Source: a virus
Taxonomy: Duplodnaviria; Heunggongvirae; Uroviricota; Caudoviricetes
Strand: one strand, 5' to 3'
Length of the DNA stretch: 64,000 bases
Virus record (IMG/VR): IMGVR_UViG_2687453454_000003
Location: 1-64,000 of that record
The notes under the pieces were generated by a model, which did no database searches, had not been told where the DNA came from, and saw only the letters and a program-made list of their open reading frames with translations. The translations under genes and the position numbers were made by a program. Shown one piece after another: positions 283-18,464 of this stretch. The stretch's first letter is position 1. Each line of letters starts with the position of its first letter.

Positions 283-317
283 TTCTGCCTCTCAGATTAT
301 ATAGATAAGCAAAAAGG

Positions 318-956: not shown

Positions 957-1142
957 ATGCGCCTTATCAAATTAAGCGAAGTCATGCTCAGAACGGGCTT
1001 CAAGAAAACGGCAATCTACTCATGGGTTAAGACGGGCACGTTTCCACAGCCAGTTAAAATTGGTAGATCAGCTAGATGGTCGCTTGAGGAGGTTGAAGCT
1101 TGGATCCAGAACAAACTTGATTCGCGGGCTGGCAACCAATGA
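957..1142 (+). CDS. alpA: AlpA-family phage transcriptional regulator / excisionase-like DNA-binding protein
   Basis: 61 aa; LSEV..RTG.....Y..V..G.FP.PVKIG.R...W...EV..WI pattern typical of AlpA/Vis HTH proteins; paralog of 15197..15394. Confidence 0.7.
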   Translation: MRLIKLSEVMLRTGFKKTAIYSWVKTGTFPQPVKIGRSARWSLEEVEAWIQNKLDSRAGNQ

Positions 1143-2156: not shown

Positions 2157-2175
2157 AGCTAAAGGGAGGGTTGGT

Positions 2176-2526
2176 GTGAATGCTCAGGCTGTCATCATGG
2201 TTTTCCTTGGTCTGATTGTCGCAAAACTATATCCAGACTGGTGGAAAGGGGCATTAGCAACTGTCGCCATCTATTTGCTTTTATCCGTCGTTAAGCGATC
2301 GTTCGTTAAGACCGTAAATCAAGCAAAACGTTTCTCATTTAAGAATTTAATAAACTATATTACTGGGCTTATTTTTTGCCTTTCAATTTTGATCGCCTCA
2401 GCTTTTTTGCCCGTATCAATAGCTAATTTTTTTGGCGCACCATATGAGGTAGGTTATCTATTCTCTGTTTTTTGTCTTGTTCTTTCCCTTCTTTACCTAT
2501 GGATGAGAGCAAAGAACAAAAATTAG
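2176..2526 (+). CDS. small multi-pass membrane protein
   Basis: GTG start at 2176 preceded by AAGGGAGGG Shine-Dalgarno; hydrophobic stretches consistent with 3-4 TM helices; lies directly after the gp16-like gene. Confidence 0.4.
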   Translation: MNAQAVIMVFLGLIVAKLYPDWWKGALATVAIYLLLSVVKRSFVKTVNQAKRFSFKNLINYITGLIFCLSILIASAFLPVSIANFFGAPYEVGYLFSVFCLVLSLLYLWMRAKNKN

Positions 2527-2544
2527 CCATCCATGGCTAACCAG

Positions 2545-4649
2545 TTATTGAGCTTCTTTTTGTGATGCCTGTGCGACTCTGGTGAGCGATTGTGTGACCG
2601 TACTGATCGCTCTGTCATATGCTGTGCTACCTTTTGGCGTATTTGCCAGACGTAACAAGGCATTTCGTATAACAGGGCTTTCGTATGCCTTCGCTGCTCC
2701 GCCTACGGCACCAGCAGCAGGAACAACAAACGCAGCCGTTTTTAGCATCCCCGCTAATACTGCTGCGTTTATGATGCCACCACCAACTAACAATCCATAA
2801 AGCTGCTGACCATTTAAGTTTTGAACGTTCGCTTTTGCCGCGTGTCTTGTATCGTTGAGGTATTTAATAACGCCGTCCAGTTCCTTTCCATGTACGCCTT
2901 TAAAGAAAGTTGCTGATTGCTTCCTGTTCCGGTGTAACGCATTAATAAACTTCTCAACACTGATATTTCCAGACGGATCAGTCGCCTTATCTACAGCATT
3001 CTGAACTATGGCTGCTCGTGCGTTTTGCCTACCATTGTCATCCAGAAGCCTGTAAAGCTGAGAACGTTCTGATGGGCTTTGGCTAAAAACGAGTTTTGTT
3101 ACATCCTCAGGCGTGGCCTTGCCGCTGGCTATTGCCTTTTGAACGCGCGTTCTTCCCATCATGTCATTGAATTTAGACCATGAGCGATCAACCCTTGCCA
3201 TATTAATGGCTTCGTCTGCTCCAAGATTTTTGGCTACGGCTTTTTTCATATCCGCCGTATATGCCTTGTAGATAATATCGCTGGCTTTCTGGAGCGTATC
3301 TTTATCAACAGTGTCAGATGACGCCATAAATCGCTTTCGAAGATCGGTTCTGTTTTCCCTCGCCAGACGCAGGTCATTTGGTCCGCTGGTGATATCGTCT
3401 TTAAATTGCTGCAAGACTTTTACCGCGGCTCTATCCTGAGATTTGCCCGGGCGGCTTAACACGGCAATCTGATTGTCGATAGCTTTTACCGTGTTTGAGA
3501 GATCGACAGGGGTATCCCCCATAGCGTCAATTATGCGGTTATATCGCTTTCCTGCTGCCTCAATGAATTTTTGTTGCCCTTTAGTCGCAGATTCATAAAG
3601 CTGTTTATCAGAAATGCCACCCAGACCATCGCTAAATGTTCTGACTAAATTTTCTCGTGCTTGTTGTTGATTCAGCCGATTCTTACCGGTTCCAAAAAAA
3701 GAACTCTTTCGCCTAATGTCTGAGCCTGACTCTGCATAAAGGTTTTATCTTTCAGCATGTCACTGGTCATTAACGGCAGATTTCTTTCCGATGCAAAGTC
3801 GACAGCAGCCTTTGCTTCAGGCGACATATCACCACGAACAGCCCTCGAAACCGCACTCGCTGTATTTTCCAGCCCCTTACCAATACCACCAATGCCAGCA
3901 GAAATTACCGTTTGTAACGGATCAATATCTTCTCCACCAGCAAGGCTGGTGGCTCCCTGTAGTGCTAAATCTGTAGCTGCTGATTTTCCTATGGCACCAA
4001 GCACCGTTCCAGCCCTGCCCACTGGTGTAAACGCCAACGCATTAGCAAGAAACGAAGTCAGGTCTTGCGGTGATAAACCCGGCTTGTTCAGGGCATAATC
4101 ACCTGATGGCAGAGAAACGATAGTATTCCCCTTCTCATCCTGCCTTAATGTCGCCCCCATTCCCTGAAGAATCTTTTCCTGAGACGCGTCAGAGCCGAAA
4201 AGTTGAGACCATCCAGCCTTTAGGGCATCCATGCTTAGTGAGTTCAATTCTGGGGCAGAGGTGACATTTTGCAGTCTCTCCATCTCTGGAGTCATTCGGC
4301 TTTCGCCTGTTATAGCATCGCGCATCGCAGCCCCAAGACTGGCTCCCTGTTCTGCTGAACGCTCAAGCCCCTCTCTTTGCTGAGTAGCTAACTTTGCATA
4401 CCCTGACGCAAGAGAATTATCAGATGATGTATGTTGAATATTTTGAGTTGCTGATTGGGATCGGTCTATTTCATTCGTTGATGGTAGTGGATAGGCAGCA
4501 TAAAAAGCCTGCTTAGCCTGCTCTACACTTTCTCCGGCTTGCGGGGCAACGACTTCATTGAAGTATTGCTCCTGAGCCTGCGCTTTTTGTTCTGGTGCTA
4601 ACGCCTGATACTGTGGAGAGGCGATAACATCTTTCCATGCTTTAGCCAT
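2545..4649 (-). pseudogene. P22 gp16-like ejection protein, reading frame broken at an A7/T7 run (3694-3700)
   Basis: Two 325-aa ORFs (2545..3522, 3672..4649); the downstream frame stays open and protein-like upstream through the run (..RRKSSFFGTGKNRLNQQQ..), so one indel joins them into about 700 aa. Confidence 0.5.
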
Positions 4650-6070
4650 TAATCACCCCATAGTGAAGAAAAGTTACTGCTGGCTGCTGGCTGTGATACC
4701 TGCTCAGATTGCGGCAATGTCTGCGACGAAGAAGAAGTTCCTCTGTCAACTGCTGAAATAACCCGCAAAGCATCATAAGCTCGACCAGAAGCAGCTTTCA
4801 GCGAATTGAACTGGTTTTCCATCTTCCGGCGCTTGGTATCAATGGTTTTTGTGGAGTCGCCAGGCTGAGGGAAATACATTTGATAATATTTTGACATTTC
4901 AGCAGGTGCGATAGCTGCCCCTGTTTCCTGACGGAGTATTGCCATTATTGCGTCATTAGCATTAACAACGTATTGCTGCTCTGTTGGGCTGAGCGTTAAG
5001 TTAGCCAGCGTCCCATTACCCAAAGCATTATTAATGATCGCCACTCGCTGTGGGCTAAGCTGGTCTTTCAGTGTATCTATTGAATCAAGAGCATCCCTAA
5101 CCCTGTATGCAAATCCAGCAGCTTTTTTAGCCCCTTCTGGCGACTTTTCCATGATCTTTTGGGCTGTTGGCAAAGCTATTGGACGAAACCCATCTCCAGA
5201 TATTGGCTGGTTTAGTTTTCCCTGCTCTTCACTTCCGTCTGTGTAGTATTTTGTGACAGTGCCATCATCGTTTTCTCTAACACTCATTAATTTTTTGGCG
5301 TTTGTATTAATTCCAGCCGCTGCCGCAAATGCCGCCGCCCCCTCTGGATCCGCCTTTAACATTTGAGCGTACTGATTGTAATTCTGCATTGCTGCTGTTG
5401 GTGCATATGCTGACGTTAACGCATTTGCTCGGCTAATATCCTGCCCTCTCGCCTGAAGTGCTTCGCCAGCCTGATTGCTGCGGATTGTCTCTGCCAACTT
5501 GCCACGCTCAATATCCCGACCTTCCATTTGATCTTTGATATCGAAATACTTCTCATGACCGAGAGAAAACAGTGCCATACTACCAGCAAGCCGCTGGAAT
5601 CCCTGTGGATCATTAACATGCATTTCGGCAACAGACTCAGGAGAAATTCCCAAGCGACGCATTTCATCTTCGTTATCTGCTATGAATTTTCCAAATGCCC
5701 CAGTTCCGAGCGAAGATGCGATTTGAGCACTAGTCGCAAGATGACCAATAGAATTTCTCTGGTCGTCATCAATAAAGCCCATCCCTTTCTGAACGCTTTC
5801 AAATTCTTCTGGATACTCAGAAATAAGACTGCGCATTTTGTTTCTGTCTCCAGACTCAAAAGCCCCGGCATATGCTTTCTGAAACTCTGCTTTACGCTGT
5901 TGTTGACGTGCCTGCTGATTAATCTCAGCAACGCCTCTTAGCCCCTGTAGCGCCATTAAACCTACGTTTGGGTGCTGCTGATACTGCACAGGCTGAGGAA
6001 CGGAAGAACGAGGAGCATTATCATTTTGCGGTGCCATGCTAGGCAGCCCGCCAAGTTGCCATGTCGCCAT
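4649..6070 (-). CDS. P22 gp20-like ejection protein
   Basis: 473 aa (P22 gp20 is about 471 aa) and position between gp7-like and gp16-like genes; assignment from recollection. Confidence 0.5.
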   Translation of the reverse strand: MATWQLGGLPSMAPQNDNAPRSSVPQPVQYQQHPNVGLMALQGLRGVAEINQQARQQQRKAEFQKAYAGAFESGDRNKMRSLISEYPEEFESVQKGMGFIDDDQRNSIGHLATSAQIASSLGTGAFGKFIADNEDEMRRLGISPESVAEMHVNDPQGFQRLAGSMALFSLGHEKYFDIKDQMEGRDIERGKLAETIRSNQAGEALQARGQDISRANALTSAYAPTAAMQNYNQYAQMLKADPEGAAAFAAAAGINTNAKKLMSVRENDDGTVTKYYTDGSEEQGKLNQPISGDGFRPIALPTAQKIMEKSPEGAKKAAGFAYRVRDALDSIDTLKDQLSPQRVAIINNALGNGTLANLTLSPTEQQYVVNANDAIMAILRQETGAAIAPAEMSKYYQMYFPQPGDSTKTIDTKRRKMENQFNSLKAASGRAYDALRVISAVDRGTSSSSQTLPQSEQVSQPAASSNFSSLWGD

Positions 6071-6747
6071 TAGAATCCAAGCCCCCCAACAAGACCAATA
6101 AGCCCACCACCAATAGCCCCGGCGACATTACCTATACCCGGAACAACGGAACCAAGTTGCGCACCCGCTAAAGCGCCTGATGCCGCCCCACCAATACCAC
6201 GCGCAAGACTGGATGGCTGCTGCGCCTGACCTGCACGAATAGCGCCAAGCCCCTGCAAGAGTTGCCCGGTATTATTGGCGTAGTTTTGCCCTGCTGTTGC
6301 CTGCCCTGATGCCGCATTCATCCCGACATTTAGCAGGTTTCCATAATTTTGCATTTGCCCACTGAGCCAATTGTTATAAAGCATGGGCGCAATGGAAGAT
6401 AACTGGTTACTGGTAGCTGTTGAGCCAAGCCCCCCGGTAGCTTCTGCTGAGACAAGGTTCTGATAACGGGCCTGATCTGCCTGTGTTTTATATAAACCAG
6501 AACCAAAGAAATCATTCGCGGCTTTATTCTGCCCTTCCAGAGTCATCAGTCCTTGCAGTTGTTGTAAAGCAGGCAATCCGACTTCTGCATACGGCTTGAG
6601 ATTATTCATCACCGTATTCCACTGCTCGCGCTGCAAATCAATTGCCTGCTGCTGGGCCTTCGCCTGAGCTTTAGAGGCACCACCATCACCGCCTTTTTCG
6701 TATACGGCACGATTGAGATGTTTATGAGCTATATGGGTAATTAACAT
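6070..6747 (-). CDS. P22 gp7-like ejection protein
   Basis: 225 aa (P22 gp7 is about 229 aa); Gln/Ala/Gly-rich with glycine-rich hydrophobic C-terminus; gene order 14-7-20-16 as in P22. Confidence 0.5.
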   Translation of the reverse strand: MLITHIAHKHLNRAVYEKGGDGGASKAQAKAQQQAIDLQREQWNTVMNNLKPYAEVGLPALQQLQGLMTLEGQNKAANDFFGSGLYKTQADQARYQNLVSAEATGGLGSTATSNQLSSIAPMLYNNWLSGQMQNYGNLLNVGMNAASGQATAGQNYANNTGQLLQGLGAIRAGQAQQPSSLARGIGGAASGALAGAQLGSVVPGIGNVAGAIGGGLIGLVGGLGF

Positions 6748-7202
6748 TCGCTGAATTCCTTATATTGTTGCCGAGTTAACTGATAAAGCGTTACGCCGAC
6801 GGGTTTACCACATCTGATATAAGCATCATCAAGGTGACCAACACGGGTAGCGCCAAGCAAACGGATAATTGCCCGTCCATATTTCGTGGTGTCAGGAACC
6901 ATAGTGATGCTGTTAAGGAATGGTGAGTTTTCGAGAAGCCATTTGCAGAATAATCGATGCCCTTGCAGTGCATATTCACCACGGAATCCGGGGTCGTACA
7001 CCGCATGGCATTCAACAACGCTATGCCAGAAGTTACGCACTTCATGAACGCCAGCCAGCACTAATCCTTCGTAGATGCCGAGATATACCGCATCAGGCTT
7101 GATGTAGTACGTGTGCCCCGGCTCAACAATATTTTCGGTATTGCCTGGCTCGTTAAGAAAGGCCTGTAATCGCACAGGGTTATCAATAAATTTTAGTTCC
7201 AT
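6741..7202 (-). CDS. P22 gp14-like protein
   Basis: 153 aa ORF heading the ejection cassette; assignment by position. Confidence 0.4.
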   Translation of the reverse strand: MELKFIDNPVRLQAFLNEPGNTENIVEPGHTYYIKPDAVYLGIYEGLVLAGVHEVRNFWHSVVECHAVYDPGFRGEYALQGHRLFCKWLLENSPFLNSITMVPDTTKYGRAIIRLLGATRVGHLDDAYIRCGKPVGVTLYQLTRQQYKEFSEC

Positions 7203-7218
7203 GCGATGCCATCCATTT

Positions 7219-7380
7219 TCACATACAGCCTGCCAGCGCCTTATCTATTAACCCTCGTGCAATTTCATGCAGAGTTGGCGCTACTCCAATTCCTGATTTT
7301 TTACGCTGCTCTTCCTGAATTTTCTTTATCGCTTCCATTTGCTTCTCACTTATCAATACTGGCTTTACTGAAATAGCCAT
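7219..7380 (-). CDS. small protein (53 aa), possible small regulator
   Basis: Translates to MAISVKPVLISEKQMEAIKKIQEEQRKKSGIGVAPTLHEIARGLIDKALAGCM; AAGGGGG Shine-Dalgarno; LexA-box-like site just upstream; below the 60-aa track cutoff. Confidence 0.35.
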   Translation of the reverse strand: MAISVKPVLISEKQMEAIKKIQEEQRKKSGIGVAPTLHEIARGLIDKALAGCM

Positions 7381-7395
7381 AACGCCCCCTTATAA

Positions 7396-7411
7396 CTGTA
7401 TAAAACAACAG
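7396..7411. promoter_or_regulatory. LexA (SOS) box-like palindrome CTGT-ATAAAACA-ACAG
   Basis: Matches CTGT-N8-ACAG with AT-rich spacer, 16 nt upstream of the ATG at 7380. Confidence 0.4.
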
Positions 7412-7825
7412 TTATTATAGTTTCACAAATCGCAATATTCATCATCGTAATTGCAGAATATGAAACAAATAGCACAAAAAAATGCCACCGCTCAGTAGCT
7501 GGTGGCGTCGTTCTGTGTGTCAGGTTTTGACAGGTTTTTTATGGACTCTAAAAACTATATTTATGGTGTCGCATTACTCTTCACGGCAGGCGCTTTTCAG
7601 TTCTGCCCTTGCTTCTGGCTCCATTGGTAATTTGATTCGCGATCAGCTATGCGGATGGTTTGCTGAACAGGCATAACAACTTCTCAGAGGCTGTTTTTTG
7701 AACTACGAAAATTTCGTAGTGCTCACTTTCAAAAACGTCACGCCCTTGTACACAGGATTTTACGAAAGTCTCGTAAAACACTCTCTGATGCCAGCCAGGT
7801 GTTGTGCGCATCAATTCAGTCACAT

Positions 7826-7942
7826 TGTGTTGGTTCAAAATACCGTGTTGTTGGTTCAGTGTTGGTTCAATAAAAAGAATAAAATCCTTATAAAACAATA
7901 CCCTTTACAAATTGAACCAACTGAACCAACTGAACCAACACC
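7826..7942. repeat. iteron cluster B (putative origin): 3 spaced TTGGTTCA (7829-7870) plus 3 tandem GAACCAAC (7914-7940)
   Basis: Direct reading; immediately downstream of the primase gene, as P4 ori is downstream of alpha. Confidence 0.6.
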
Positions 7943-7964
7943 TTTTCTACGCACATGAAGAAGC

Positions 7965-10724
7965 TCATTCTTCAGATGAGTTATAATCTCCTGGCTGGTA
8001 ATTGAGTACATAAACGTTTATTTGTCGTCCCTGAATACGTGGTGATTTTCTTTGGTATCCACGACCGCTGTTTGGTGGGGTTAGCATCCCGGCTTTTTTC
8101 AACACTTCAGCAAACTGTTTTGCGTTGAAACCACATGCGATCTCCTTTTCAAATGTGGCCGGGAATGTGTAGAAAATCATTGGGCTTTCGTCATGTTCTC
8201 CACGCTGACGGTATCCGGCTAAATCTTTGATGGGCAAATCTGCCGGGCTGTATGGAAATGGTGCAAAACGGCTAAGCCCATAGGCATTAAGAAATGCCTC
8301 CGTTTGTTCAATAATCTGCTGATGTTCTTTGTTACCTGTGCCGAACTCGCGCAACCATGCGTTATAGCTGTGCTGTATCGCATCACGGCATGTCTGAGCA
8401 TCCCAGCCTGTTACAACCTCGCCTAACAGCAATGCGGCCTCCAGAATGGCAAATCGCGCGGCTACACGGTGAACCTGCTCACCATAATCGGATGGGATCA
8501 GGTTTCTCCATCTGCTTTCGCAATCACGAACGGTTTTAATAGCCTGTTGCTGGTGGTCTGCCAGCCATTTAATCCACTCACGCCCGGCTGCGCCGTGGTG
8601 ATGCTGGTAAGCGTCTTTCAGTGCGTCTGCGTGCTGTTTTCCGTTCTGGTAATCGTGAAAGCGTACTGCTTTACTCAACGGAATATTCAGCAGTCGCACC
8701 AGTTGCCCGGCTTTGGTTTTTCGCCCGGAAGTAGCGATAAATGTTTCTAAATCCATTTCTCCGGTGCTGATTGCCACTGTACGCCAGCGTTTTAGATCCC
8801 GGTTTCCACCATCTTTAGCGCCTTGCAGTTTCCCTACACCGTTAAATAACGCATAGGCAGACTGTGAAACGCTGACAGGATCAGCGCCCTGACCAACTTC
8901 ATCAAGCGGCATTAGTCCGTCATTGTGGGCGGCGGCCTCATTTGCCAGCCCCAGCGCGGTTCCGTACCACGTCAGCCGCAGTAAATCAGGGTTGCCGTAT
9001 AAGCTGCTCGCCACGTTTGCCGTGGTGGTCTTACCTGCGCTCGACTGCTCATAGAAATGAATGCCGAACCCGTCAGCGCCCACCAGCCCAATCAATGGCG
9101 CTGCCAGTGCTGCGCCGATCCCGGTCATCATTGAATAGTTACCAAAGGCCAGACGCGCCACGTTATCACGCCAGCTTTTCGCGCTCCCTGAGACGGTATA
9201 TCCGGCTGCGGCTGAGCTTCTCCCGCTGAACAGCACAGGATTTTCAGGTGTTCCGATGATTTCCCCATCAGGCATGATGTACGCTCCGCATTGCCATCCA
9301 GTGGCATGAGCAACACGCCACAATTCACGAGAGCCACTGCGTTGTAGCCAGTCTGCCAGTATTGCTCTGAGGCTGCTTTTGGTCGTGACATTTACCCCAC
9401 CAGCTTTAAGTGTGCGCCATCCTTCACGTTCACCAATATCAGCCAGTGGAATGGCAGCGGTTGTCGGCGTTTCAGAACCAAACGACAGCCAGCGAAGAAT
9501 GAGATACTGGTCTTTATCGTCTCTGCCAGTACCGATAACGCTTAACGGAGAACATAACCAGCTTTCGTTATTGATGATTTCTCCACTCTGGCTGTCAGCT
9601 CTCGGAGATACCCAATAAATACCATCCTCGCGGCTTTCTATTCTTGGTTTCAGTGGGTCGGTATCCATAACCTTAAAATCGCTTCCCTCAATGGTCTGTG
9701 GCTCCTGTTTCACGCCATTACCCTGTGGTTGGTACATTGACTTATTGAACGCTTCTGTGGCGCATTTAATGCCGTGTTTTTGGTGGTAATCATTCCAGTC
9801 TGCTTTGTGATCTGTCGGGGGTAATGCCACCCATCCAGAAACAGATAAAGCTGCTTTTTCTGCTGCTATTCTCCCCGTGTTTTGTCTTCCTTCGCTGTGG
9901 TCGTTATCCGCAGCAATGATGATTTGTGCTGAAGGAAATTTATCCCGCAGTACCTGGGCGACATATAACAGGTTCCCGGCATCAATCGCCGCCACTGTCA
10001 GCGCCTCTGGACGAATTAAATGGGCAGATAATGCCGTTGCCAGCCCTTCTGCGATTAAGATGCTCTGTGTTGTTTCTGGCGCGTTTATGGCGTGATATGC
10101 CCCCCGCTTTGCTGAACCTGTCAGGAGTCTTTTTTCACCATGTGATGTAATAGTCTGTGCTGCTGTGACTGCGCCGGATTTATCCACCAGCGCCAGCAAC
10201 AGAGATCCATCGGGCAACACGGGGAATGTAAAATCACCTACCCCTTTCGCAACCAGATAATCAGATTTGCCGTTTACAGCCTTTCTGCGCATGTCATCAA
10301 ACTGACGGGAAAACGTATCCCGTCTTTGTTGTTCGTCCTTCTCTGCCCTTTTCAGGCGCTCCTGTTCGCGTCGCTGGCGCTCGGTTTCCAGTTGTTCCCG
10401 TTTCTGGCTGGTGGCTTCTGGTGTTTCCGTTGTCCGGTAATCAATACCCAGAACATCAGCGGCAAGAAGCGCCGCCTCTGTTGTGTCGCAGTTATTTACG
10501 CGTTTAATTAAATCCAGCCCATCACCAGCGCCGCACTGATTACAGATGAAGCTACCGCGCCCGTTGTCATCGAACCGGAATCGATCTTTGCCCCCACATG
10601 CAGGGCAGGGAGCATGACGGCGCGGAGAGTCAGGGACATTTATGTTCAGGCAGCCCAGCACATGAGGCCAGTTGTTTTCAGACGCACTGATAACCTGACG
10701 GATAAGATCAATGTTTCGCATCAC
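7965..10724 (-). CDS. P4 alpha-like primase-helicase
   Basis: 919 aa; N-terminal zinc-binding CPACGG..FRFDD...FICNQCG; Walker A-like SSAGKTT and Walker B-like LMPLDEVGQ. Confidence 0.85.
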   Translation of the reverse strand: MMRNIDLIRQVISASENNWPHVLGCLNINVPDSPRRHAPCPACGGKDRFRFDDNGRGSFICNQCGAGDGLDLIKRVNNCDTTEAALLAADVLGIDYRTTETPEATSQKREQLETERQRREQERLKRAEKDEQQRRDTFSRQFDDMRRKAVNGKSDYLVAKGVGDFTFPVLPDGSLLLALVDKSGAVTAAQTITSHGEKRLLTGSAKRGAYHAINAPETTQSILIAEGLATALSAHLIRPEALTVAAIDAGNLLYVAQVLRDKFPSAQIIIAADNDHSEGRQNTGRIAAEKAALSVSGWVALPPTDHKADWNDYHQKHGIKCATEAFNKSMYQPQGNGVKQEPQTIEGSDFKVMDTDPLKPRIESREDGIYWVSPRADSQSGEIINNESWLCSPLSVIGTGRDDKDQYLILRWLSFGSETPTTAAIPLADIGEREGWRTLKAGGVNVTTKSSLRAILADWLQRSGSRELWRVAHATGWQCGAYIMPDGEIIGTPENPVLFSGRSSAAAGYTVSGSAKSWRDNVARLAFGNYSMMTGIGAALAAPLIGLVGADGFGIHFYEQSSAGKTTTANVASSLYGNPDLLRLTWYGTALGLANEAAAHNDGLMPLDEVGQGADPVSVSQSAYALFNGVGKLQGAKDGGNRDLKRWRTVAISTGEMDLETFIATSGRKTKAGQLVRLLNIPLSKAVRFHDYQNGKQHADALKDAYQHHHGAAGREWIKWLADHQQQAIKTVRDCESRWRNLIPSDYGEQVHRVAARFAILEAALLLGEVVTGWDAQTCRDAIQHSYNAWLREFGTGNKEHQQIIEQTEAFLNAYGLSRFAPFPYSPADLPIKDLAGYRQRGEHDESPMIFYTFPATFEKEIACGFNAKQFAEVLKKAGMLTPPNSGRGYQRKSPRIQGRQINVYVLNYQPGDYNSSEE

Positions 10725-11079
10725 CGTACCCCATGTGGTCTATAGCGTTTGCGATATGGCTAACCAGCATCTGCCACTTGGTTATTCCGTAATCAGTCAG
10801 CATGCCATCATTGTTTAGCCACATATCAAATTCAGCGGTTGTCGCAAGTTTCCACTTATCGCCGTGGACAGTCCTCATTGCTGGGTACATGAATGCGCAA
10901 ATCAGATCACAAACATCTGACGGCTTCAGAGATGTAGTAATGGTGCGTCCCTCTGGCGTCTGAATTGCCATTTTCTCTTCACCAGTAGAATGAAGGTTAT
11001 GAATCCACACAGCACCAGCAATCTTTGCCACCTGCTCTCCGATTGCGGAGCTAAGCGCCATTTCTGCATTTTCACGCAT
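10708..11079 (-). CDS. hypothetical protein
   Basis: ORF track; part of a tightly packed minus-strand operon upstream of the primase. Confidence 0.4.
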   Translation of the reverse strand: MRENAEMALSSAIGEQVAKIAGAVWIHNLHSTGEEKMAIQTPEGRTITTSLKPSDVCDLICAFMYPAMRTVHGDKWKLATTAEFDMWLNNDGMLTDYGITKWQMLVSHIANAIDHMGYGDAKH

Positions 11080-11413
11080 GAGAACCTCCCGCTACAGTTG
11101 CGCCCATGTCATTAACCATGCTTTGCCATATCTCACGCCCGACGTCAGTCAATCCGTCCTTAGTGACGCAACGCTCAAGAAGCTCGATCCCCACGGTTTC
11201 CCACTGCGGGTAGAACACTTTCATGGCTGCCAGTGTGTAGCTATCGATCAGGCTGCGAACGCCTTTTACTCCATTAACGATTTCCACACGTACGGCCTCG
11301 CCGTCCGCATCAACCATGAAATAGTCCCCGCCGCTGGTGGAGGTAATGTGGTTATACAGTGCCGACGCATACTTATTTGCCAGCGCATTCAGTCGGAAAT
11401 TTTTAGTAATCAT
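11072..11413 (-). CDS. hypothetical protein
   Basis: ORF track; operon context. Confidence 0.4.
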   Translation of the reverse strand: MITKNFRLNALANKYASALYNHITSTSGGDYFMVDADGEAVRVEIVNGVKGVRSLIDSYTLAAMKVFYPQWETVGIELLERCVTKDGLTDVGREIWQSMVNDMGATVAGGSHA

Positions 11414-11423
11414 GGCTCCATCC

Positions 11424-12026
11424 TCAGTGCGTCACTGGTTCCGCTGGCATGCCGTTTTCATTCAGTTCAGCTATAAAGCTGTTGTGAAGTTCAGCAAGCG
11501 TTTCACGACCAAATGGAGTCAGTGCTCCTTGTTCCACATCCATCATGGCTCTGTAGAAAATGATGGCGCGTTCTGTGCCAGACTCGATGCCAAAACGTTC
11601 TATCATCGCTCCCTCAATGTTGTTTGCCATAGCGAGGCGCTCTGCTACTGGATACAGCGGCATGGCGACGATGCCGTTGGAATAAACAGCCACTTCGGAA
11701 GGATTGCCAGTATCATCAATGATGCTGACAGTGCCGTTTTCCTCTCTCATTTCCAGCATGAATACTGTTGCGATCAGCCATCTCCACATAATGACGTTAT
11801 GCTGTGATGTGTAATCGAAATATCCCTGGTTGCCGCCATCGGCAATAGCGAGATGTATTGACATACCTTCATCTGGTTTATCGTCATAATCCCCGGCATC
11901 CAGACGATTTACGGCATCAATATATGAGACGGCCTCAACGCGTTCTGTCATGCCATCGTTGCTGCGGTACATGATGTTTACGCCGTCAGGCGTTGCTTCT
12001 GTATGGAAAGTTAAGAAATTATTCAT
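11424..12026 (-). CDS. hypothetical protein (start trimmed to internal Met)
   Basis: ORF 11424..12131; internal start MNNFLTFHTE avoids overlap with the upstream gene. Confidence 0.35.
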   Translation of the reverse strand: MNNFLTFHTEATPDGVNIMYRSNDGMTERVEAVSYIDAVNRLDAGDYDDKPDEGMSIHLAIADGGNQGYFDYTSQHNVIMWRWLIATVFMLEMREENGTVSIIDDTGNPSEVAVYSNGIVAMPLYPVAERLAMANNIEGAMIERFGIESGTERAIIFYRAMMDVEQGALTPFGRETLAELHNSFIAELNENGMPAEPVTH

Positions 12027-12240
12027 GTTTCGCCTCGCCTGAATGATTCTGTAACTCATATTTGCCCAACAATTCGTCCGCTTCCTGAATAGCTTCTGGT
12101 ACGCCATTGAGCAGTGACATAACCGCGCCAATCATTAACTTGTCTCTGTTGCTGGGGCTGGCCCCTTCAAGCCAGAACCCTAAAACAGTCTGAACCTGTT
12201 CGATGCGACATTGCGCTTCAATGAGCTGGATGTTGGTCAT
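12019..12240 (-). CDS. hypothetical small protein
   Basis: ORF track. Confidence 0.35.
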   Translation of the reverse strand: MTNIQLIEAQCRIEQVQTVLGFWLEGASPSNRDKLMIGAVMSLLNGVPEAIQEADELLGKYELQNHSGEAKHE

Positions 12241-12500
12241 TTCGCACTCTCCACATCGATTAAACCGATATCTATCAGGGAGGTAACTTTTTGTAGCCAG
12301 CTATTGATTACTGTCGCCTGTTCCCCGCCCACCGAGGGAACAATCTCATTCATCACATGAACCAGACCTGTGCGCGCTCTGGTAAGCCGTTCAGTCGCGC
12401 AATCTGCGGGAGTGAATGTGTCTGGATATGGCTCTTCACGCCCCAGCAATGATTCAATTTCCAGCTCACACGGATGACGATAAATTAAGTTGATATTCAT
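12237..12500 (-). CDS. hypothetical small protein
   Basis: ORF track; start/stop overlaps with neighbours. Confidence 0.4.
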   Translation of the reverse strand: MNINLIYRHPCELEIESLLGREEPYPDTFTPADCATERLTRARTGLVHVMNEIVPSVGGEQATVINSWLQKVTSLIDIGLIDVESAK

Positions 12501-12691
12501 TTTTCACCCCCAAGAATTACCAGCTCGGCACGGGCATCGTTAACCAAAGATGAGCACGCTTTAATCGCATCCACGACATCAGTAGCGTCCATTTCTTCAG
12601 CCGAAAGACTGACAGCAACCAGGACAGCCGCTGCTTGCTCGATTAATTGAAGTGCGGACGTAAGGCGAGGGGTATTAATTGAGTTATTCAT
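12497..12691 (-). CDS. hypothetical small protein
   Basis: ORF 12497..12748 trimmed to internal Met. Confidence 0.35.
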   Translation of the reverse strand: MNNSINTPRLTSALQLIEQAAAVLVAVSLSAEEMDATDVVDAIKACSSLVNDARAELVILGGEK

Positions 12692-12902
12692 TGGTTGCCC
12701 CCGTTTTTCCTGGCATTTCGCCACCTTCCAGCAGGAAATGAACGTCACGAACGGCGAGATCCAATATCGCGAGTAACGCCTTCAGTCTTTCGTCTCGTGA
12801 GGGAGAGTTGCTCACCAGAATGTCGTTAATCACTTCTGTCAGTGTGATGATCTGGCTTGTGCGTTCGAGGGGATCCATATGCACATCGTAGGTTTTAATC
12901 AT
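12684..12902 (-). CDS. hypothetical small protein (72 aa)
   Basis: C-terminal part of the 355-aa six-frame ORF; ATG at 12902 overlaps the stop of the upstream 64-aa gene. Confidence 0.35.
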   Translation of the reverse strand: MIKTYDVHMDPLERTSQIITLTEVINDILVSNSPSRDERLKALLAILDLAVRDVHFLLEGGEMPGKTGATNE

Positions 12903-13089
12903 GTGCCACCTCCATGCGGATACGACCAGCAAAAAAGCAGATGTGATCGCGCACCAGAGAACGGCGAGCATCGCGTTCAGACTCGGCAGCAATATGATGA
13001 ATTTTGGCGGTAATTGTCGGGCAATCGCGGCGAACTGCGGCGATAATCCAGATAAATTGCGGTTTTTGGGTAGGGGTAGTAGCCAGCAT
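12895..13089 (-). CDS. hypothetical small protein (64 aa)
   Basis: ATG at 13089 preceded by AGGAGG (13097-13102) with 7-nt spacing. Confidence 0.4.
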   Translation of the reverse strand: MLATTPTQKPQFIWIIAAVRRDCPTITAKIHHIAAESERDARRSLVRDHICFFAGRIRMEVAHD

Positions 13090-13291
13090 GTGGCAGCCTC
13101 CTTGTACTGGGAGTTCTTCCCACCACCGGAGCTGCGAAACTCGCTGGTGGTGGACTGAACAGAGTTCGCAGTACCGGCGTACAAGGAAACCGGCCAGCCT
13201 TTCGGCTGCCCTGTCCAGCCCACCATAATTTTGCAAGCGACGCGGATTATAACCGCATCACTGAAAAAAGTGTGAGTCTGGCTAACGGCAC

Positions 13292-13313
13292 AAAAAAAGA
13301 CGCTCGGCGCGTC
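13292..13313 (-). terminator. intrinsic terminator-like hairpin GACGC-GCCGA-GCGTC followed by T7
   Basis: Minus-strand stem-loop followed by seven U; sits in the leader upstream of the small-gene operon. Confidence 0.4.
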
Positions 13314-13744
13314 ATGTGTCGCCTCGTACATTTCCGGGCTGCGAAACCCGGCACCCGTTTTATGAGGTGCCTTATAACCATAAACCGTGTTGCCGCATAA
13401 CGGCAAGCTCTTTTTTATGGACTCCGAAAACTCACTATTGGAAGCACCAGATGCACAATACATCGCGCTCATTTCGTTAACGTCGCGCGTGTGGACGAAG
13501 GTTTTTGTGGAGTCACTACGCGAGCAGAGAAAGCCATCTACGACCAGAAATTCTCTGGCGCAGCCGCCGACCTTCTCAACGCTAACACCATCGACCGTAA
13601 TTTCTGACATAGTTAAGGCATCCGCTCCCACCACCAGAAAATGATAAACTTTGCTTGTATCTGCTGTATTAATGCCAGACTTTGCTGTCATATTGCTGGA
13701 TTTTGGCGACATACCAGCCAGTGAAAATATCTTCTTCTGGACGG

Positions 13745-13927
13745 TTAGCATTTGTTAACCTCCGCGAACTCCTTCATGAAGCGCGCCAGCGGTTGTACGC
13801 ATGGCGATTGATACCCGTCGCGATAAAACGTCACTCGGTTGTGAGACACGCTTTCGACAGTAACGAGTGCTCCGTGGGCATCCTTGTAGCGTTTTTGAGG
13901 TTGTGGTGTTCCTGTCGGCTTAAACAT
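13745..13927 (-). CDS. hypothetical small protein
   Basis: ORF 13745..14014 trimmed to Met at 13927, which overlaps the stop of the antirepressor gene. Confidence 0.3.
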   Translation of the reverse strand: MFKPTGTPQPQKRYKDAHGALVTVESVSHNRVTFYRDGYQSPCVQPLARFMKEFAEVNKC

Positions 13928-14753
13928 GGACCACCTCCAGACGCTTAGCGAGCCAGCGTTGCGACAGGCGGGTGAGTTCTCCTTTGCGCTGCTCATATTC
14001 CATGCCCATATCAATTAACGTGATATTGGTGCTTTCGAGATATGAGAGGTGCTCAAGTTGTTCTGCGTTCATATGGTCGCGAGGTTCGCCAGAATAGCCA
14101 TTTATCCGCGCCCACTGCTTAGCAGTTAGCCCACCAAGAACGATACGAGAAATCATATTGCTCTCGTTTGTGTAGTGGTGTTGCTGCGTCGTTTTCCCCT
14201 GCTCGGCACGGGCCATATTCAGCGCATCGCACATTGGCTTAAAGTTGTTTGCGGCACTGATACGGGCTTTTAGCTGGCGACGATAGCGGGCGGCGATTTC
14301 AGGAACGCTACGCTGTAATTCTTCCTCGCACTGGATGAAATAACGGCGGATAGCGCGACCCTGATCATTGCGTTCGATCATTGCCAGTTCTTTCGCCATT
14401 CCGACACTTAACAGATAGTCTTTGCCGGGTCTGCCAGACTGCTTAATCTTTCTGTAAGCCGCGCCATTCGGGCTTTTCCCCAAATTTGGGGAAATAGTTT
14501 TATGGACTGAGTAATCGTGCCCAATGGTGAAGTCATATTCAGAGATGCGATCAGTGATCCATGTAGAGAAGTCTTTTCCCACGCCCAACGCTTTGTGTAA
14601 CGCTTTTGCGCTAACAATATTGGTTTCACGCCCACCGATATGACCAGGAATAACCGGGACAATTGCGGCAAATTCATTACCGTTAATTGTGCTCAGAGAG
14701 GCGTTCAGATGAGGGGCGGCCTCAGAAATTAATCTGCTTTTTTCGATGTTCAT
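13920..14753 (-). CDS. phage antirepressor (Rha/AntA-type N-terminal domain)
   Basis: 277 aa; KALHKALGVGKDFSTWITDRISEYDFTIGHDY matches the DNA-binding domain pattern of Rha/Ant antirepressors. Confidence 0.6.
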   Translation of the reverse strand: MNIEKSRLISEAAPHLNASLSTINGNEFAAIVPVIPGHIGGRETNIVSAKALHKALGVGKDFSTWITDRISEYDFTIGHDYSVHKTISPNLGKSPNGAAYRKIKQSGRPGKDYLLSVGMAKELAMIERNDQGRAIRRYFIQCEEELQRSVPEIAARYRRQLKARISAANNFKPMCDALNMARAEQGKTTQQHHYTNESNMISRIVLGGLTAKQWARINGYSGEPRDHMNAEQLEHLSYLESTNITLIDMGMEYEQRKGELTRLSQRWLAKRLEVVHV

Positions 14754-14765
14754 TTTCAGTCTCCG

Positions 14766-15197
14766 TTAAGCGGCGTTAAACGCGTCCGGGTAGAGTTTCA
14801 GAATGTCGGCAATTTCCTGCTGAGAAAGTCCGTTGTGATCATTTATGTTCGCAAGATGGTTAATATGAGTGATCACTTTCAGAACATCACCACGGCAGGA
14901 GAAACGGTAGCGAAGGTGTGTTCCGATACCATCAGGATTCTTTTCGTCGATACGCTCCAGAGTGATTCCAAGCTGGCGTTCTAACTCTGTTGCATAGTTA
15001 CGACCAGAAGACAGACGGCAGTAGCGAAGAATGTCATTTTCTGTCCATCCCTCTATACCAGTACGCAGCATATAGACTCTGGCACGATGCTTTTTCGGTG
15101 TGCGCTTTGGTGCTTGAAGGGATTTTGTAAGGGGCGTAACATCAGATACGCGAATATCTGAATTAGCCGCCTGTAATGGGCGGTTTTTCTTATTCAT
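14766..15197 (-). CDS. hypothetical protein (143 aa)
   Basis: ORF track; immediately downstream of alpA. Confidence 0.4.
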   Translation of the reverse strand: MNKKNRPLQAANSDIRVSDVTPLTKSLQAPKRTPKKHRARVYMLRTGIEGWTENDILRYCRLSSGRNYATELERQLGITLERIDEKNPDGIGTHLRYRFSCRGDVLKVITHINHLANINDHNGLSQQEIADILKLYPDAFNAA

Positions 15198-15394
15198 TAC
15201 GCTACCTCGCCACGCGACTCAGCGATGCGCTGATTAATCCATTCTTCAATTTCACTTTCAATAAACGCAATTGATCGGCTTCCAATCTTTACAGATTGAG
15301 GGAATCGCTGTTCTTTGATGAGCCGATAAATCCACGCTTTGCTGTAACCAGTACGGCGTTGAACCTCAGAAAGACGAATAAATGATTGAGACAT
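15197..15394 (-). CDS. alpA: AlpA-family phage transcriptional regulator
   Basis: 65 aa; LSEV.RRTGYSK.WIYRLIK...FP..VKIG.RS..F...E...WI pattern. Confidence 0.7.
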   Translation of the reverse strand: MSQSFIRLSEVQRRTGYSKAWIYRLIKEQRFPQSVKIGSRSIAFIESEIEEWINQRIAESRGEVA

Positions 15395-15512
15395 GTTTAC
15401 TCCTATATTCTGTCATCTTCTTTAATGGACATCAGTAGACAGAAAGGAGATTAAACAAACCGGTGAATGGGTGATAGCGGATAAAAATAAAATATTTTTT
15501 TGAGAAGATTAT

Positions 15513-15547
15513 CCGCTTTGAAATACACAGTAGCGTATTCAAAGCGG
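15513..15547 (-). terminator. 10-bp perfect inverted repeat CCGCTTTGAA-N15-TTCAAAGCGG (terminator of the cargo gene or operator of alpA)
   Basis: Direct reading; lies between the stop of 15592..16473 and the alpA start. Confidence 0.3.
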
Positions 15548-15591
15548 AAATCGCGAAATTTACTTAAAACGTTTATGTAGGATTTTGCTTG

Positions 15592-16473
15592 CTATAAATC
15601 TCTACTCATTAAATCAGATATTTTTATCAAGCTCATTTCTCTGTCTTTGTTTACATAAAGCTGAAGCAAGCGGGTGTATCTCTCGCTTATAGATTCAAGT
15701 GCAAAAGGCTTTATTGATTCCTTAATAGCCTGCGTATCTTTCGGATCATCACTAAAAACCAAGGCAGAAATCATCGGATTGCTCACTTCCTTACCTGACT
15801 TCTCACCCCAAATCAGCAGATCAACAATAGGTATCACTCTATTAGATATCAACTTCTGAAGGGTCTTTAATCCAATCCTTTTCTGAGCGACATGCTCTCT
15901 CTCTGGTACTTTTAACTCTTTTCGCCATAGAGGTAGAAGGTGAGTCAGGCTGGTAATAATTTCGTCATCAGTGGCGTCATCTAAATCTATAGAAACGAGT
16001 ATGATGTTAGGGGAACAATTACTTAGGTTTCCAGTAACACTCGCAAGCATAGCGTTTGCCTTGAGGTAGCAATCCTCTTCGTCTCTTTTAAAAAAGCCTT
16101 GATCTATCGATGAGAAAGAGTACATGGCCAGCTCTGAAAATGTTACTGGACTAACCCCCATAGCTGAAGATAATGAGGGAAGATCATCGTACTCATTTCT
16201 TAATGATGGGGCTTCATCATTTACTTTGCGAATAAATTCTTCGACCTCTTCCTCTTCTTCATTGAGAATGGTTAGGTTAGGATCGCCCGAAAAAATCCTT
16301 TCATATTTTATATCGTACTCTTCTTTGAATATAGCAGTGTCATCTTTTGCATGACGCAATAAAAAATCGCGCCACTCTAATTCTTGAATCAAGTCCGGCA
16401 AGGTTAAATCATTTAAAAATTCATAATTACTAATATCAAACCATGCTAAATCTTGTTTTTTGGCTCTCACCAT
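15592..16473 (-). CDS. hypothetical protein (293 aa), AT-rich cargo next to integrase
   Basis: ORF track; visibly lower GC than neighbours; acidic stretch EEEEEVEE; no recognisable motif. Confidence 0.5.
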   Translation of the reverse strand: MVRAKKQDLAWFDISNYEFLNDLTLPDLIQELEWRDFLLRHAKDDTAIFKEEYDIKYERIFSGDPNLTILNEEEEEVEEFIRKVNDEAPSLRNEYDDLPSLSSAMGVSPVTFSELAMYSFSSIDQGFFKRDEEDCYLKANAMLASVTGNLSNCSPNIILVSIDLDDATDDEIITSLTHLLPLWRKELKVPEREHVAQKRIGLKTLQKLISNRVIPIVDLLIWGEKSGKEVSNPMISALVFSDDPKDTQAIKESIKPFALESISERYTRLLQLYVNKDREMSLIKISDLMSRDL

Positions 16474-16615
16474 ACGCCACCCCGCGCCCCTAATTCTGAC
16501 GGCTATGCCAGCCCGTAGGGGTGTACGGGTTTTCGGGGATCAGCCTAGACATAGCCTATTCTTTGTTCGTCTACATAAGTCTACTACCATTGCTTAACAC
16601 GGTCTATTCATACAG

Positions 16616-17830
16616 TTAAGCTCGTTTCCCAAACGAACCATGAACAACGTTCTCCTCCTTCTCCAGCGCATCCATATAGTCGGCATACCATTGAAGCATC
16701 TCCCGCCTTCCATCCAGATATTGCGCATGGTTGTATGTGCCACGAATTGAGTTCTTATCAACGTGAGCGAGCTGCGTTTCTATCCACGCGGTGTTATAGC
16801 CCTGCTCATGCAAAATCGTGCTCATAGTGTGCCGGAACCCATGACCAGTTACACGTCCAGCGTAGCCAATGCGCTTAAACACTTGGTTTATGCTGGCCTC
16901 ACTCATTGTTTTCCTTGGATCATTGCGCCCGGGAAACATAAGAGGGTAATTGCCTGTTATTTCTCTAATCTTCCCAATAAGCGAAAGAGCCTGATCAGAC
17001 AATGGCACAATATGAGGCCGCCGCATTTTCATACGTGAAGCGGGTATCTCCCAGATAGCCTTGTTGAAATCAATTTCATCCCATAATGCGCCACGTAGTT
17101 CGCCAGTCCGCAAGCCGGTGATAATCAGTAGACGAGCCGCCATAACAACCAATGCGCTTCCTGAGTAACTGGACAATGCCTTGAAAAAATCAGGTAATTC
17201 TTTAGCTGTAAGGAAAGGGTAATGATTAGATTCATGGCCTTGCATCGCGCTAGTAAGGTCTGGTGCAGGGTTATACTCTGCGCGACCAGTGACTATTGCA
17301 TAGCGGAAAACTTCCCCGCACCGCTGCCTCACTTTTTTGGCTTTTTCTGTAGCACCGCGCCCCTCGATGCGCCGCAGCACATTCAGAAGTTCAAGTGGTT
17401 TGATTTCGGCGATTGGTTTTTTGCCAATGTAAGGGAACACATCTTTGTTGAAGGCTTCGAGGATGTCTGAAGCATAACCAGCAGACCATTTTTTTAATTT
17501 GCTGCTGTGCCACTCAAGGGCAATATCTTTGAAGGTGTTGTTTAACTGCGTTTCCCGGGCAATCTTTTCCTCTCGTTTCGCTTCCATCGGATCGATACCA
17601 CCAGCGATACCTCTTTTCGCATCTTCACGTTTTGCCCGAGCATCGGCTAGAGTAACCTCAGGATACACACCTAGTGCCAATAGCTTCTCTTTACCAGCTA
17701 CACGATATTTAAGTCGCCAGTATTTACCTCCATTAGGTTTTACCAAGAGATACAAACCGCCACCATCGGCCAGCTTGTAAGCCTTCTCTTTTGGCTTGGC
17801 TGTGTCTATTTGACGGGCATTGAGTTTCAC
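16616..17830 (-). CDS. int: tyrosine integrase, P4 family
   Basis: 404 aa; N-terminal arm-binding pattern (AKPKEKAYKLADGGGLYLLVKP.G.KYWRLKYR) and C-terminal catalytic region with GHGFRHT and YNHAQYLD.RR. Confidence 0.9.
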   Translation of the reverse strand: MKLNARQIDTAKPKEKAYKLADGGGLYLLVKPNGGKYWRLKYRVAGKEKLLALGVYPEVTLADARAKREDAKRGIAGGIDPMEAKREEKIARETQLNNTFKDIALEWHSSKLKKWSAGYASDILEAFNKDVFPYIGKKPIAEIKPLELLNVLRRIEGRGATEKAKKVRQRCGEVFRYAIVTGRAEYNPAPDLTSAMQGHESNHYPFLTAKELPDFFKALSSYSGSALVVMAARLLIITGLRTGELRGALWDEIDFNKAIWEIPASRMKMRRPHIVPLSDQALSLIGKIREITGNYPLMFPGRNDPRKTMSEASINQVFKRIGYAGRVTGHGFRHTMSTILHEQGYNTAWIETQLAHVDKNSIRGTYNHAQYLDGRREMLQWYADYMDALEKEENVVHGSFGKRA

Positions 17831-17902
17831 TTGGGGGTACCTCCACTAAACCGAACAGCAAATACCCCCATAAGTACCCCCATCTGACCGTAGATTTTGA
17901 GG

Positions 17903-17978
17903 GACTTTAGTAGACGTCAAAAGACGAACGGGGCTTTAATACACGGATTATAAGGGGTTTTGAAAGACTTTAGTAGAC
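17903..17978. promoter_or_regulatory. two direct GACTTTAGTAGAC repeats (17903-17915, 17966-17978), putative integrase arm-type sites
   Basis: Direct reading; lie between int and the att core; inverted GTCTAC copies at 16569-16588 on the other side of int. Confidence 0.3.
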
Positions 17979-18000
17979 TTGGGGAGATGTTTGAATGGTG

Positions 18001-18048
18001 CCGATAATAGGAGTCGAACCTACGACCTTCGCATTACGAATTATAAGA
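18001..18048 (-). other. 46-bp att core: 3' portion (positions 31-76) of tRNA-Thr(CGU), not a complete tRNA
   Basis: Minus strand reads ATTCGTAATGCGAAGGTCGTAGGTTCGACTCCTATTATCGGCACCA: anticodon loop with CGT, T-arm GTAGG/TTCGACT/CCTAT, acceptor 3' strand and CCA; flanking sequence cannot form the 5' half. Confidence 0.7.
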
Positions 18049-18464
18049 ATCCGCTTCTAATTCAAAGCATTACCCCATCAACACTGCGCTCACACGCCCC
18101 ACCACATCAAAACATGTAAAGCCTTGCAAGCCATTGTGAGGCCTTATGTGTCTCAGTTTTGTCCCACCTTGTATTATGACTTGCATAGCCACTGAAGATA
18201 AACGTGACGACAAACAGCGCAGCAGTCTTCTTTTCTTTCACACTTTCCCCAATCAGCATACATACCTTCTACCATAACTGTAGTGAATGTCTGTTATGAG
18301 CGAGGGGCGGAAGTTCGGAATGCATACTTACTTCGATGTGTGTTAAGCAATGGGGGCAGGTCGGCAATTTATTGTAAAAGCGATAACACTAACAGCATTA
18401 GTGAAGAGGCTAAAGATTTGTTTAGAACCCGCCCCCTTAAGAGGCGGTATTCTTGGCAAACATT

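Follow-up and report, generated by a model that had tools for sequence, protein, structure and literature searches.

The tRNA-Thr(CGU) gene thrW is among the most often used integration hotspots in E. coli (PMC7545054). The phages SfI, SfII, SfV, SfX and P22 integrate in thrW beside proA, and one and the same 46-base string has been described as the att core of SfI, SfII, SfV, SfX and P22 (PMC3636060). For SfIV, a 46-bp att site has been found at both prophage ends (PMC3851460). Two elements can occupy the gene in a row: in an experiment, SfI integrated in tandem at the attL of a resident SfX (PMC3306764). In the satellite P4 (NC_001609), the core consists of the 3'-terminal 20 nt of a tRNA-Leu gene. 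The annotated order of sites in P4 is a repeat at the start of int, a tandem pair, 112 nt, the 20-bp core, ~53 nt and another tandem pair. More generally, the tDNA subsites used by islands fall into two classes, one centred on the anticodon and one at the T-stem/junction (PMC4383910).

Here we describe a locus that combines both kinds of system. The window, that is the whole stretch of 64,000 nucleotides that was analysed, contains a block of 46 nt with an integrase gene of the P4 family on one side and a lambdoid prophage on the other. We are highly confident that the two elements form a tandem array at thrW and that this site is the junction in its middle; most likely the island came first and the prophage second. 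Followed in the sense of the tRNA, which runs from right to left, the array starts with the intact thrW, followed by the 46.3-kb prophage, the 46-nt fragment and an island of ~19.7 kb; past the island, beyond the left edge, come a decayed 16-nt fragment of thrW and then native chromosome (yagP'/paoD). The tandem integration at a tRNA-Thr(CGU) site, which an earlier sequence-only reading of the window had proposed, is what we find, with prophage and P4-type island adjoining at a thrW fragment.

For the comparison with complete genomes we used window positions 15500-19500, which match three complete E. coli chromosomes (EC26, XJW9B263 and BN01) over the full length with 99.9-100% identity. The intact thrW and the far junction of the island lie outside the window; we took them from genomes whose shared part is 99.98-100% identical to it. 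Relative to the window, EC26 has an extra IS66 at position 4436-4443 and single-base indels. A further strain, EM03-18-08, carries the same island with the same protein accessions, adjoining an intact thrW, and no prophage.

A fragment of thrW at the end of a lambdoid prophage

The 46-mer TGGTGCCGATAATAGGAGTCGAACCTACGACCTTCGCATTACGAAT lies at 17996..18041 on the + strand, with the tRNA sense on the - strand. It occurs as a single copy in the window, even if up to three mismatches are allowed, and none of 100 shuffles of the window gave a match. Its reverse complement agrees in 46 of 46 positions with nt 31-76 of the intact thrW in the closest genome; likewise, thrW 31-76 compared with the EC26 locus by blastn-short gave 100% identity over 46 nt. 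The fragment takes in the final base on the 5' side of the anticodon stem, the anticodon loop with CGT and, further 3', the variable loop, T arm, 3' strand of the acceptor stem and CCA. The earlier reading had assigned the block to nt 31-76 of tRNA-Thr(CGU) correctly. The block itself is real, but the coordinates given for it, 18001..18048, are off by 5-7 nt and moreover span 48 nt.

We see no tRNA gene at this position. The 30 nt at 18042..18071 (TATAAGAATCCGCTTC...) have no resemblance to the 5' part of thrW. ARAGORN found 0 tRNA genes in the whole window, and Rfam reported no tRNA at the gathering score in the window; with relaxed thresholds, the Rfam tRNA model reached only 14.2 bits, compared to a gathering score of 29 (E = 5.7). 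In this respect the earlier reading was right on all points: it had noted that the flank lacks a 5' half, had taken the block for an att core and not for a tRNA gene, and had predicted that a tRNA finder would call no full tRNA here. Judged by its sequence, 17996..18041 is an att core, namely an orphan 3' fragment of thrW (nt 31-76) that forms a hybrid att site, and is not a tRNA gene. In the strains that have only the island, identity to the window stops exactly at 18041. Among the strains listed, more than 18 match the window without a difference from 15500 through 18041 and then continue with the 5' part of thrW. The 46-mer thus has two roles: for the lambdoid prophage it is the int-distal junction, and for the P4-type island the int-proximal one. 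A third copy of the core, searched in full or half length (25-26-mers with up to three mismatches), was not found in the window or in the 45-kb EC26 locus. Note that the island has a decayed copy of 16 nt at its far end, which is detected by blastn-short only.

The prophage begins at 18042, fills the window up to 64000 and runs past the right edge. According to the annotation of EC26 it is complete and lambda-like, with genes for tail fibre, J, tape measure, head, portal, terminase, lysis, Q, replication and repressor, and with xis and int closing it at the right end. This annotation of a near-identical genome also places the int-distal end of a lambdoid prophage to the right of the core, in line with the earlier reading. 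The integrase gene (63201..64000, + strand; tblastn and Pfam Phage_integrase) is cut by the edge after 266 of 387 codons, and window positions 63246-63998 are 100% identical to the EC26 integrase (tblastn). The full protein is 99.7% identical to the integrase of Shigella phage SfIV, 89.5% identical to that of P22 (over 372 aa) and 100% identical to the known part of the SfII integrase, so that the description of the gene at the right edge as a P22-type integrase holds. The excisionase (62890..63324, + strand) is identical to that of SfIV in 144 of 144 amino acids. In EC26 and XJW9B263, an intact 76-nt thrW follows 14 bp past the int stop codon and is itself followed by proA. This intact gene contains the second copy of the 46-mer, ~380 bp past the right edge of the window in the three near-identical genomes, just where the earlier reading had expected a second core.

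We then compared both junctions with the attP of free SfIV, which runs after int as ...CTTATTGATTTTAA, the 46-mer and then TATAAGAATCCGATTCTAATTCAAAGCATTACCCC... Its left flank recurs in EC26, where it separates int from the intact thrW. Its other arm is found at 18042..18164 (+ strand) as the int-distal arm of a P22/SfIV-type attP, ~123 nt long and with 2 mismatches to SfIV. Since the SfIV attP flanks match both junctions, the junctions of the prophage are an SfIV-type attP that has been cut within the 46-mer. On the - strand the 46-mer exactly matches the published core ATTCGTAATGCGAAGGTCGTAGGTTCGACTCCTATTATCGGCACCA (PMC3636060). The core of P22 was taken from the same paper; the P22 record L06296 ends inside int. 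The expectation that P22-type modules target thrW with a core of about this length is borne out by the exact 46-base core in the literature (PMC3636060, PMC3851460). A simple repeat search recognised no arm-type repeats in the SfIV-type attP arms. With two perfect 46-mers and intact int and xis genes, the prophage should be capable of precise excision, which would restore the junction between thrW and the island.

In summary, the int-xis-attP module is that of SfI, SfII, SfIV, SfV and P22: the core is the same, Int and Xis are nearly or fully those of SfIV, both attP arms of SfIV are near-identical here, and the integration is beside proA as in the P22/Sf phages. On the other hand, the phage body differs from these phages, being that of a lambda-like siphovirus with lambda-type tail genes. 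The cargo differs as well. Where the Shigella phages have gtrABC in the slot adjacent to attP, we find a gene of low GC content (18465-21716, 32-35% GC) that codes for a protein of 1083 aa.

A search of this protein against Pfam, NCBIfam, PADLOC, PHROGs and the PDB gave no match. Its family comprises at least 760 clusters, in which the 120 best hits are nearly all ~1085 aa long, the named members come from many Gammaproteobacteria and an N-terminal motif is invariant. A confident structural model (pLDDT 84) predicts an N-terminal alpha/beta part, a long TPR solenoid and C-terminal alpha/beta domains, and its structural matches are generic TPR proteins only. In Citrobacter, homologues are found in a context that resembles a defence island, and in Pectobacterium they are located at the end of an integrase/AlpA/DUF6387 island. 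A second large gene of the prophage (49074-52256) codes for a metallophosphoesterase of 1060 aa, which matches the PADLOC candidate system PDC-S60 (E 2.6e-97).

We also considered whether there is a third small element at 18042-22110, since the EC26 annotation (PGAP) contains an integrase pseudogene at ~21778-22110. This was rejected: the pseudogene shows no recognisable similarity to integrases, there is no flanking copy of the core, and 18042-18164 is the arm of the SfIV attP.

The P4-integrase island and its nested core

The island occupies 1..17995 (- strand) and extends past the left edge, where its far junction lies at a distance of ~1.7 kb. Its tyrosine integrase of 404 aa is encoded at 16616..17830 on the - strand, exactly the open reading frame named in the earlier reading. 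The assignment to the P4 family is likewise confirmed by three Pfam domains (the N-terminal, arm-binding Arm-DNA-bind_3 or DUF4102, the central, SAM-like Phage_int_M and the catalytic Phage_integrase) and by 42% identity to P4 Int over the full length (E 5e-116). The catalytic residues R241, H330-x-x-R333, H356 and Y366 align with identical residues of P4 Int. As a further candidate relative we considered IntF of the cryptic prophage CP4-6 from K-12, which shows no meaningful similarity and was rejected.

Next to int there are three copies of the repeat TGGGGGTAY, at 17832-17840 (+), 17862-17870 (-) and 17874-17882 (-), which are the only ones in the window. In the 45-kb EC26 locus we find five copies where 0.38 are expected, all of them at the two ends of the island; the remaining two form a tandem pair at the far end. 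When the island ends are joined in silico and aligned to the P4 attP, the five repeats and the core are in register. The reconstructed order is a repeat at the start of int, a tandem pair, 112 nt, the core, ~55-60 nt and a tandem pair, and the 112 nt between tandem pair and core are found in P4 and in the island alike. The five repeats of P4, TGGGGGCA, are almost the same in sequence as those of the island, TGGGGGTA, and have the same order and orientation. Note that P4 has a sixth annotated copy of the arm repeat inside int, and that it is the five intergenic ones that match the island. From this alignment we conclude that the arm-type repeats of the island are real and homologous to those of P4; the earlier reading, which had placed arm-type repeats beside the left integrase, is upheld by their P4-like layout.

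Between the arm repeats and the core there are two direct repeats of 21 nt, TTTTGARRGACTTTAGTAGAC (17895-17915 and 17958-17978, + strand), and weaker inverted copies of them are found downstream of the island int at 16569-16581. Possibly these are sites for accessory proteins such as AlpA/Vis or IHF, which is a guess. A small helix-turn-helix protein of the AlpA/Vis type is encoded at 15197..15394 on the - strand (Pfam Phage_AlpA, E 8.9e-20) and is likely the excision and regulatory factor of the island. Rfam reports an int-alpA motif at 16488-16555. We were not able to find a sigma-70-like site for the island int in a promoter scan of 16400-18500.

P4 and the island have in common the AlpA/Vis-type factor, a C4/CI-type antisense RNA and a primase with a Toprim domain. 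In contrast, no counterparts of P4 psu, sid and delta were found: the Psu, Sid and Ogr/Delta families are absent from the Pfam-searched ORFs of the island, which include part of its small ORFs, and from the PGAP annotation of the record. For this reason we filed the element as an island with a P4-family integrase and not as a P4 satellite. Unlike P4, the island carries genes for P22-like ejection proteins. These are strongly diverged P22-type gp14/gp7/gp20/gp16-like genes for head completion and ejection at 2545-7202, inside the P4-type att boundaries of the island; for the gp20-like protein, the best phage match (53%) is to APSE phages, and the P22-like gene block beside the primase gene is conserved in 180 genomes. 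Besides the int-alpA motif and the C4/CI-type antisense RNA, the Rfam matches of the island include isrK.

How much of the thrW fragment belongs to the island? The sub-core of the P4-family integrase, which is in register with the 20-bp core of P4, lies at 17996..18012 (- strand) and corresponds to thrW nt 60-76, that is, from the T loop to the CCA. At the far junction, the tRNA strand reads TCCTATTATCG-CACCA (EC26 and EM03-18-08; L001 14999-15014 and L005 2782-2803). Compared with thrW nt 60-76 one G is missing here, and 16 of 17 nt are kept; the deletion point is TGGTGC-GATAATAGGA in both EC26 and EM03-18-08. On one side of the far core lie the tandem arm repeats. On the other side begins TTAAAATCAAAGAGTTACCCC..., which is the same chromosomal sequence as past the far junction of CP4-6 in K-12.

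The P4-type island therefore shares only the last ~17 nt of thrW, and the length of 46 nt belongs to the P22/Sf-type module; the two cores are therefore nested and not identical. Here the earlier reading has to be modified. It had assumed one core for two elements, which is correct as to the position, but the P4-type element uses only the 3'-terminal ~17-20 nt. The nested cores match the two described classes of subsites, anticodon-centred and T-stem/junction (PMC4383910). Today, the block is the distal att of the prophage (46 bp plus the arm 18042-18164) and an att of the island at once, the latter int-proximal att consisting of the last ~17 nt and the arm repeats at 17832-17882. Due to the deletion of one nucleotide in the far core, the island may no longer excise.

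Several described systems are close to this arrangement. In S. flexneri serotype 1d, the lysogens of SfI and SfX likewise have two elements at thrW with one att core between them, and the newcomer has the intact tRNA gene on one side and the resident on the other, as it does here (PMC3306764). The difference is that SfI and SfX both have the same type of 46-bp core, whereas the resident here has a P4-family integrase that uses ~17 nt. In the tandem arrays of the Islander collection, every member comes with an integrase and a tDNA fragment of its own (PMC4383910), again as here; in terms of the Islander subsites, the array has one A (anticodon-centred) and one J (T-stem/junction) member, and we see no substantive difference. 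Compared to P4, the target gene is that of tRNA-Thr(CGU) instead of tRNA-Leu. Finally, CP4-6 of K-12 is located in the same slot between thrW and yagP/paoD, and the chromosomal flank past its far junction is identical. It differs in having unrelated content, an unrelated IntF and a longer far repeat (at least 48 nt).

Order of integration and rival readings

How could the array have arisen? Most likely the island came first. Its attP contained the 3'-terminal ~17-20 nt of thrW, and the tRNA gene would have been rebuilt through recombination in the T-loop/acceptor part. Later, the attP of the phage, which carries thrW nt 31-76, would have recombined with the intact thrW through the P22/SfIV-type integrase, and we infer a crossover that was probably within the region of the anticodon loop. 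In this step an SfIV-type integrase and host factors would recombine the 46-bp attP core with thrW by the established mechanism of tyrosine integrases. The phage copy would now complete a functional thrW beside int, and the displaced original 46 nt would have stayed joined to the island as the orphan fragment. The substrates of the island integrase, for its part, would be the 3'-terminal ~17 nt of the orphan fragment with the arm repeats, and the decayed far core, where the missing base may hinder excision.

The states of the site in the population bear on this order. Among 5426 complete E. coli genomes, the arm of the island is joined to an intact thrW in 692, and 143 have the hybrid junction, that is, the island arm, the 46-mer and an arm of the P22/Sf type. 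The junction with the cargo of this prophage occurs in 3 genomes. The ETEC strain H10407, for example, is one of the 143 and has a different prophage in the slot.

Our argument for the order is one of population parsimony only, since the reverse order gives the same structure. The phage could have entered thrW first and the island later, into the orphaned 46-nt fragment; the final structures would be indistinguishable, and the orphan fragment does hold a complete sub-core of the P4 type. Nevertheless, we regard this course of events as very improbable. The identical island, with the same deletion of one nucleotide in the far core, is found at an intact thrW in the 692 genomes, which come from many lineages, as opposed to only 3 genomes with the junction of this prophage, and other strains have different prophages with P22/Sf integrases in the slot. 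Also, in the one experimental case the newcomer took the intact tRNA at the attL of the resident (PMC3306764). The most parsimonious history is therefore that of an island first and then a phage that takes the intact tRNA gene, as with SfI on an SfX lysogen (PMC3306764). Even less can be said for the idea that the 46-mer is a decayed duplicate of a tRNA gene, or a chance similarity, and has nothing to do with site-specific recombination. All that speaks for it is the missing 5' half. We consider it refuted by the exact match of 46 of 46 positions, for which the chance expectation is zero, and by the boundaries, which coincide with those of the SfIV attP core and with the breakpoint of the island-only strains.

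While the site was thus, in our preferred reading, used by an island and then by a phage, the sharing could be only historical, such that the island is a fixed fossil and the 46-mer now serves the lambdoid prophage only. This is a possibility to be taken seriously, although we rather doubt it. In its favour, the far core lacks one base in both EC26 and EM03-18-08, and the gp16-like gene is frameshifted in the window and split by the IS66 in EC26. Against it, Int and AlpA are intact, as are the five arm repeats, the island occurs in hundreds of genomes from diverse lineages, and the missing base might fall outside the region of strand exchange. One can also go further in the opposite direction and suppose that the island is an active, satellite-like element and not a decaying relic, and that its pairing with prophages that have a P22/Sf integrase is one of satellite and helper. 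We think this very unlikely; if it were true, the tandem placement at thrW in 143 genomes would be a functional pairing beyond the sharing of a hotspot.

Meaning of the site

The core, the target gene, the integrase family, the tandem occupation of thrW and the P4-type att architecture have all been published already or can be found in reference records. What we report is thus the correct reading of an ordinary and already understood structure, which means little beyond correct annotation; a possible wider interest lies only in the cargo genes. It marks where exactly a 46-kb prophage and an island of ~20 kb end. In practice, it can be used for delimiting prophages and for designing PCR assays for excision. 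For the biology of the site, it means that two families of integrases stack at one tRNA gene by means of nested cores, one of 46 bp at the anticodon loop and one of ~17 bp from the T loop to the acceptor, and that thrW itself stays intact.

Possible cargo genes of the prophage

In the lambdoid prophage, the cargo slot next to attP, which is occupied by gtrABC in the Shigella Sf phages, holds a gene for a protein of 1083 aa (window 18465-21716, minus strand) with a low GC content of 32-35%. The protein had no match in Pfam, NCBIfam, PADLOC, PHROGs or PDB. Its family comprises at least 760 clusters and is spread across many Gammaproteobacteria; the length is about 1085 aa in nearly all of the best matches, and an N-terminal motif, GPVAGGDGKTDTQTFPV...WAFAVST, is invariant. 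In an AF2 model (pLDDT 84), the protein has an a/b domain at its N-terminus, then a TPR solenoid, and further a/b domains at its C-terminus; the fold matches of this model were to TPR only.

We also looked at the neighbours of the homologues. In Citrobacter they are adjoined by TerB, BrxCD-like and DEAD helicase genes, and a homologue in Pectobacterium lies next to DUF6387, AlpA and integrase genes. Possibly, the 1083-aa gene is an uncharacterised defence or cargo gene.

Between this gene and the tail-fibre assembly gene, the PGAP annotation of EC26, an E. coli genome with the same tandem, places a short integrase pseudogene fragment (window about 21778-22110, minus strand), in which we could not recognise any similarity to integrases. 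Rfam gave a match of 222 bits to the IS009 sRNA (22392-22590, minus strand), which overlaps the region of tail-fibre assembly.

Another gene of the prophage (49074-52256, plus strand), which has the Q antiterminator on one side and the lysis genes on the other, codes for a metallophosphoesterase of 1060 aa. This protein has matches to PDC-S60 (E = 2.6e-97), a candidate defence system in PADLOC, and to an endonuclease effector model. The metallophosphoesterase gene is adjoined by one for a type II-like DNA methyltransferase (47417-48469).

Att sites and putative regulatory elements of the island

Three Rfam matches were found on the minus strand of the P4-int island, namely the C4 antisense RNA, which belongs to the P4 CI-type immunity RNA family (13143-13230), isrK (13293-13370) and the int-alpA RNA motif (16488-16555). 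All three fit a P4-like regulatory backbone. A DUF6387 gene (15592-16473, minus strand; 38% GC) lies between int and alpA, and we note that the pair of DUF6387 and AlpA is present both here and in the Pectobacterium island, beside the 1083-aa homologue.

In the stretch that separates the P4-type arm repeats from the core, there are two direct repeats of 21 nt, TTTTGARRGACTTTAGTAGAC (17895-17915 and 17958-17978, plus strand). Weaker, inverted copies occur downstream of int (16569-16581); at the far end of the island the repeats were not found. Possibly, these repeats are binding sites for AlpA/Vis or IHF.

The far att core lies about 1.7 kb to the left of the window (14999-15014 in the EC26 locus, L001, and 2786-2801 in L005, the locus of EM03-18-08, where the island sits directly at an intact thrW). 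In both of the strains examined it lacks one base compared to thrW (TGGTGC-GATAATAGGA), a loss that might impair the excision of the island.

P22-type genes within the island

Directly after its primase gene, and within its att boundaries, the island carries a block of P22-type genes (2545-7202, minus strand), consisting of gp14 (head completion) and genes for gp7-, gp20- and gp16-like ejection proteins. In the window, the gp16-like gene occupies two separate frames (2545-3522 and 3672-4649, minus strand). It is whole (701 aa) in EM03-18-08 and in XJW9B263, which like EC26 is one of the genomes near-identical to the window; in EC26 itself an element of the IS66 family, with a target duplication of 8 bp (window 4436-4443), interrupts it. 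The frameshift in the window may be real or may be a sequencing error.

No sequenced phage has a protein more than 53% identical to the gp20-like one, the top match being APSE, and the block from primase to gp16 is kept in 180 of the 5426 complete E. coli genomes searched. The P22-type genes could be what remains of an older tandem partner, or they could have a function within a satellite-like island.
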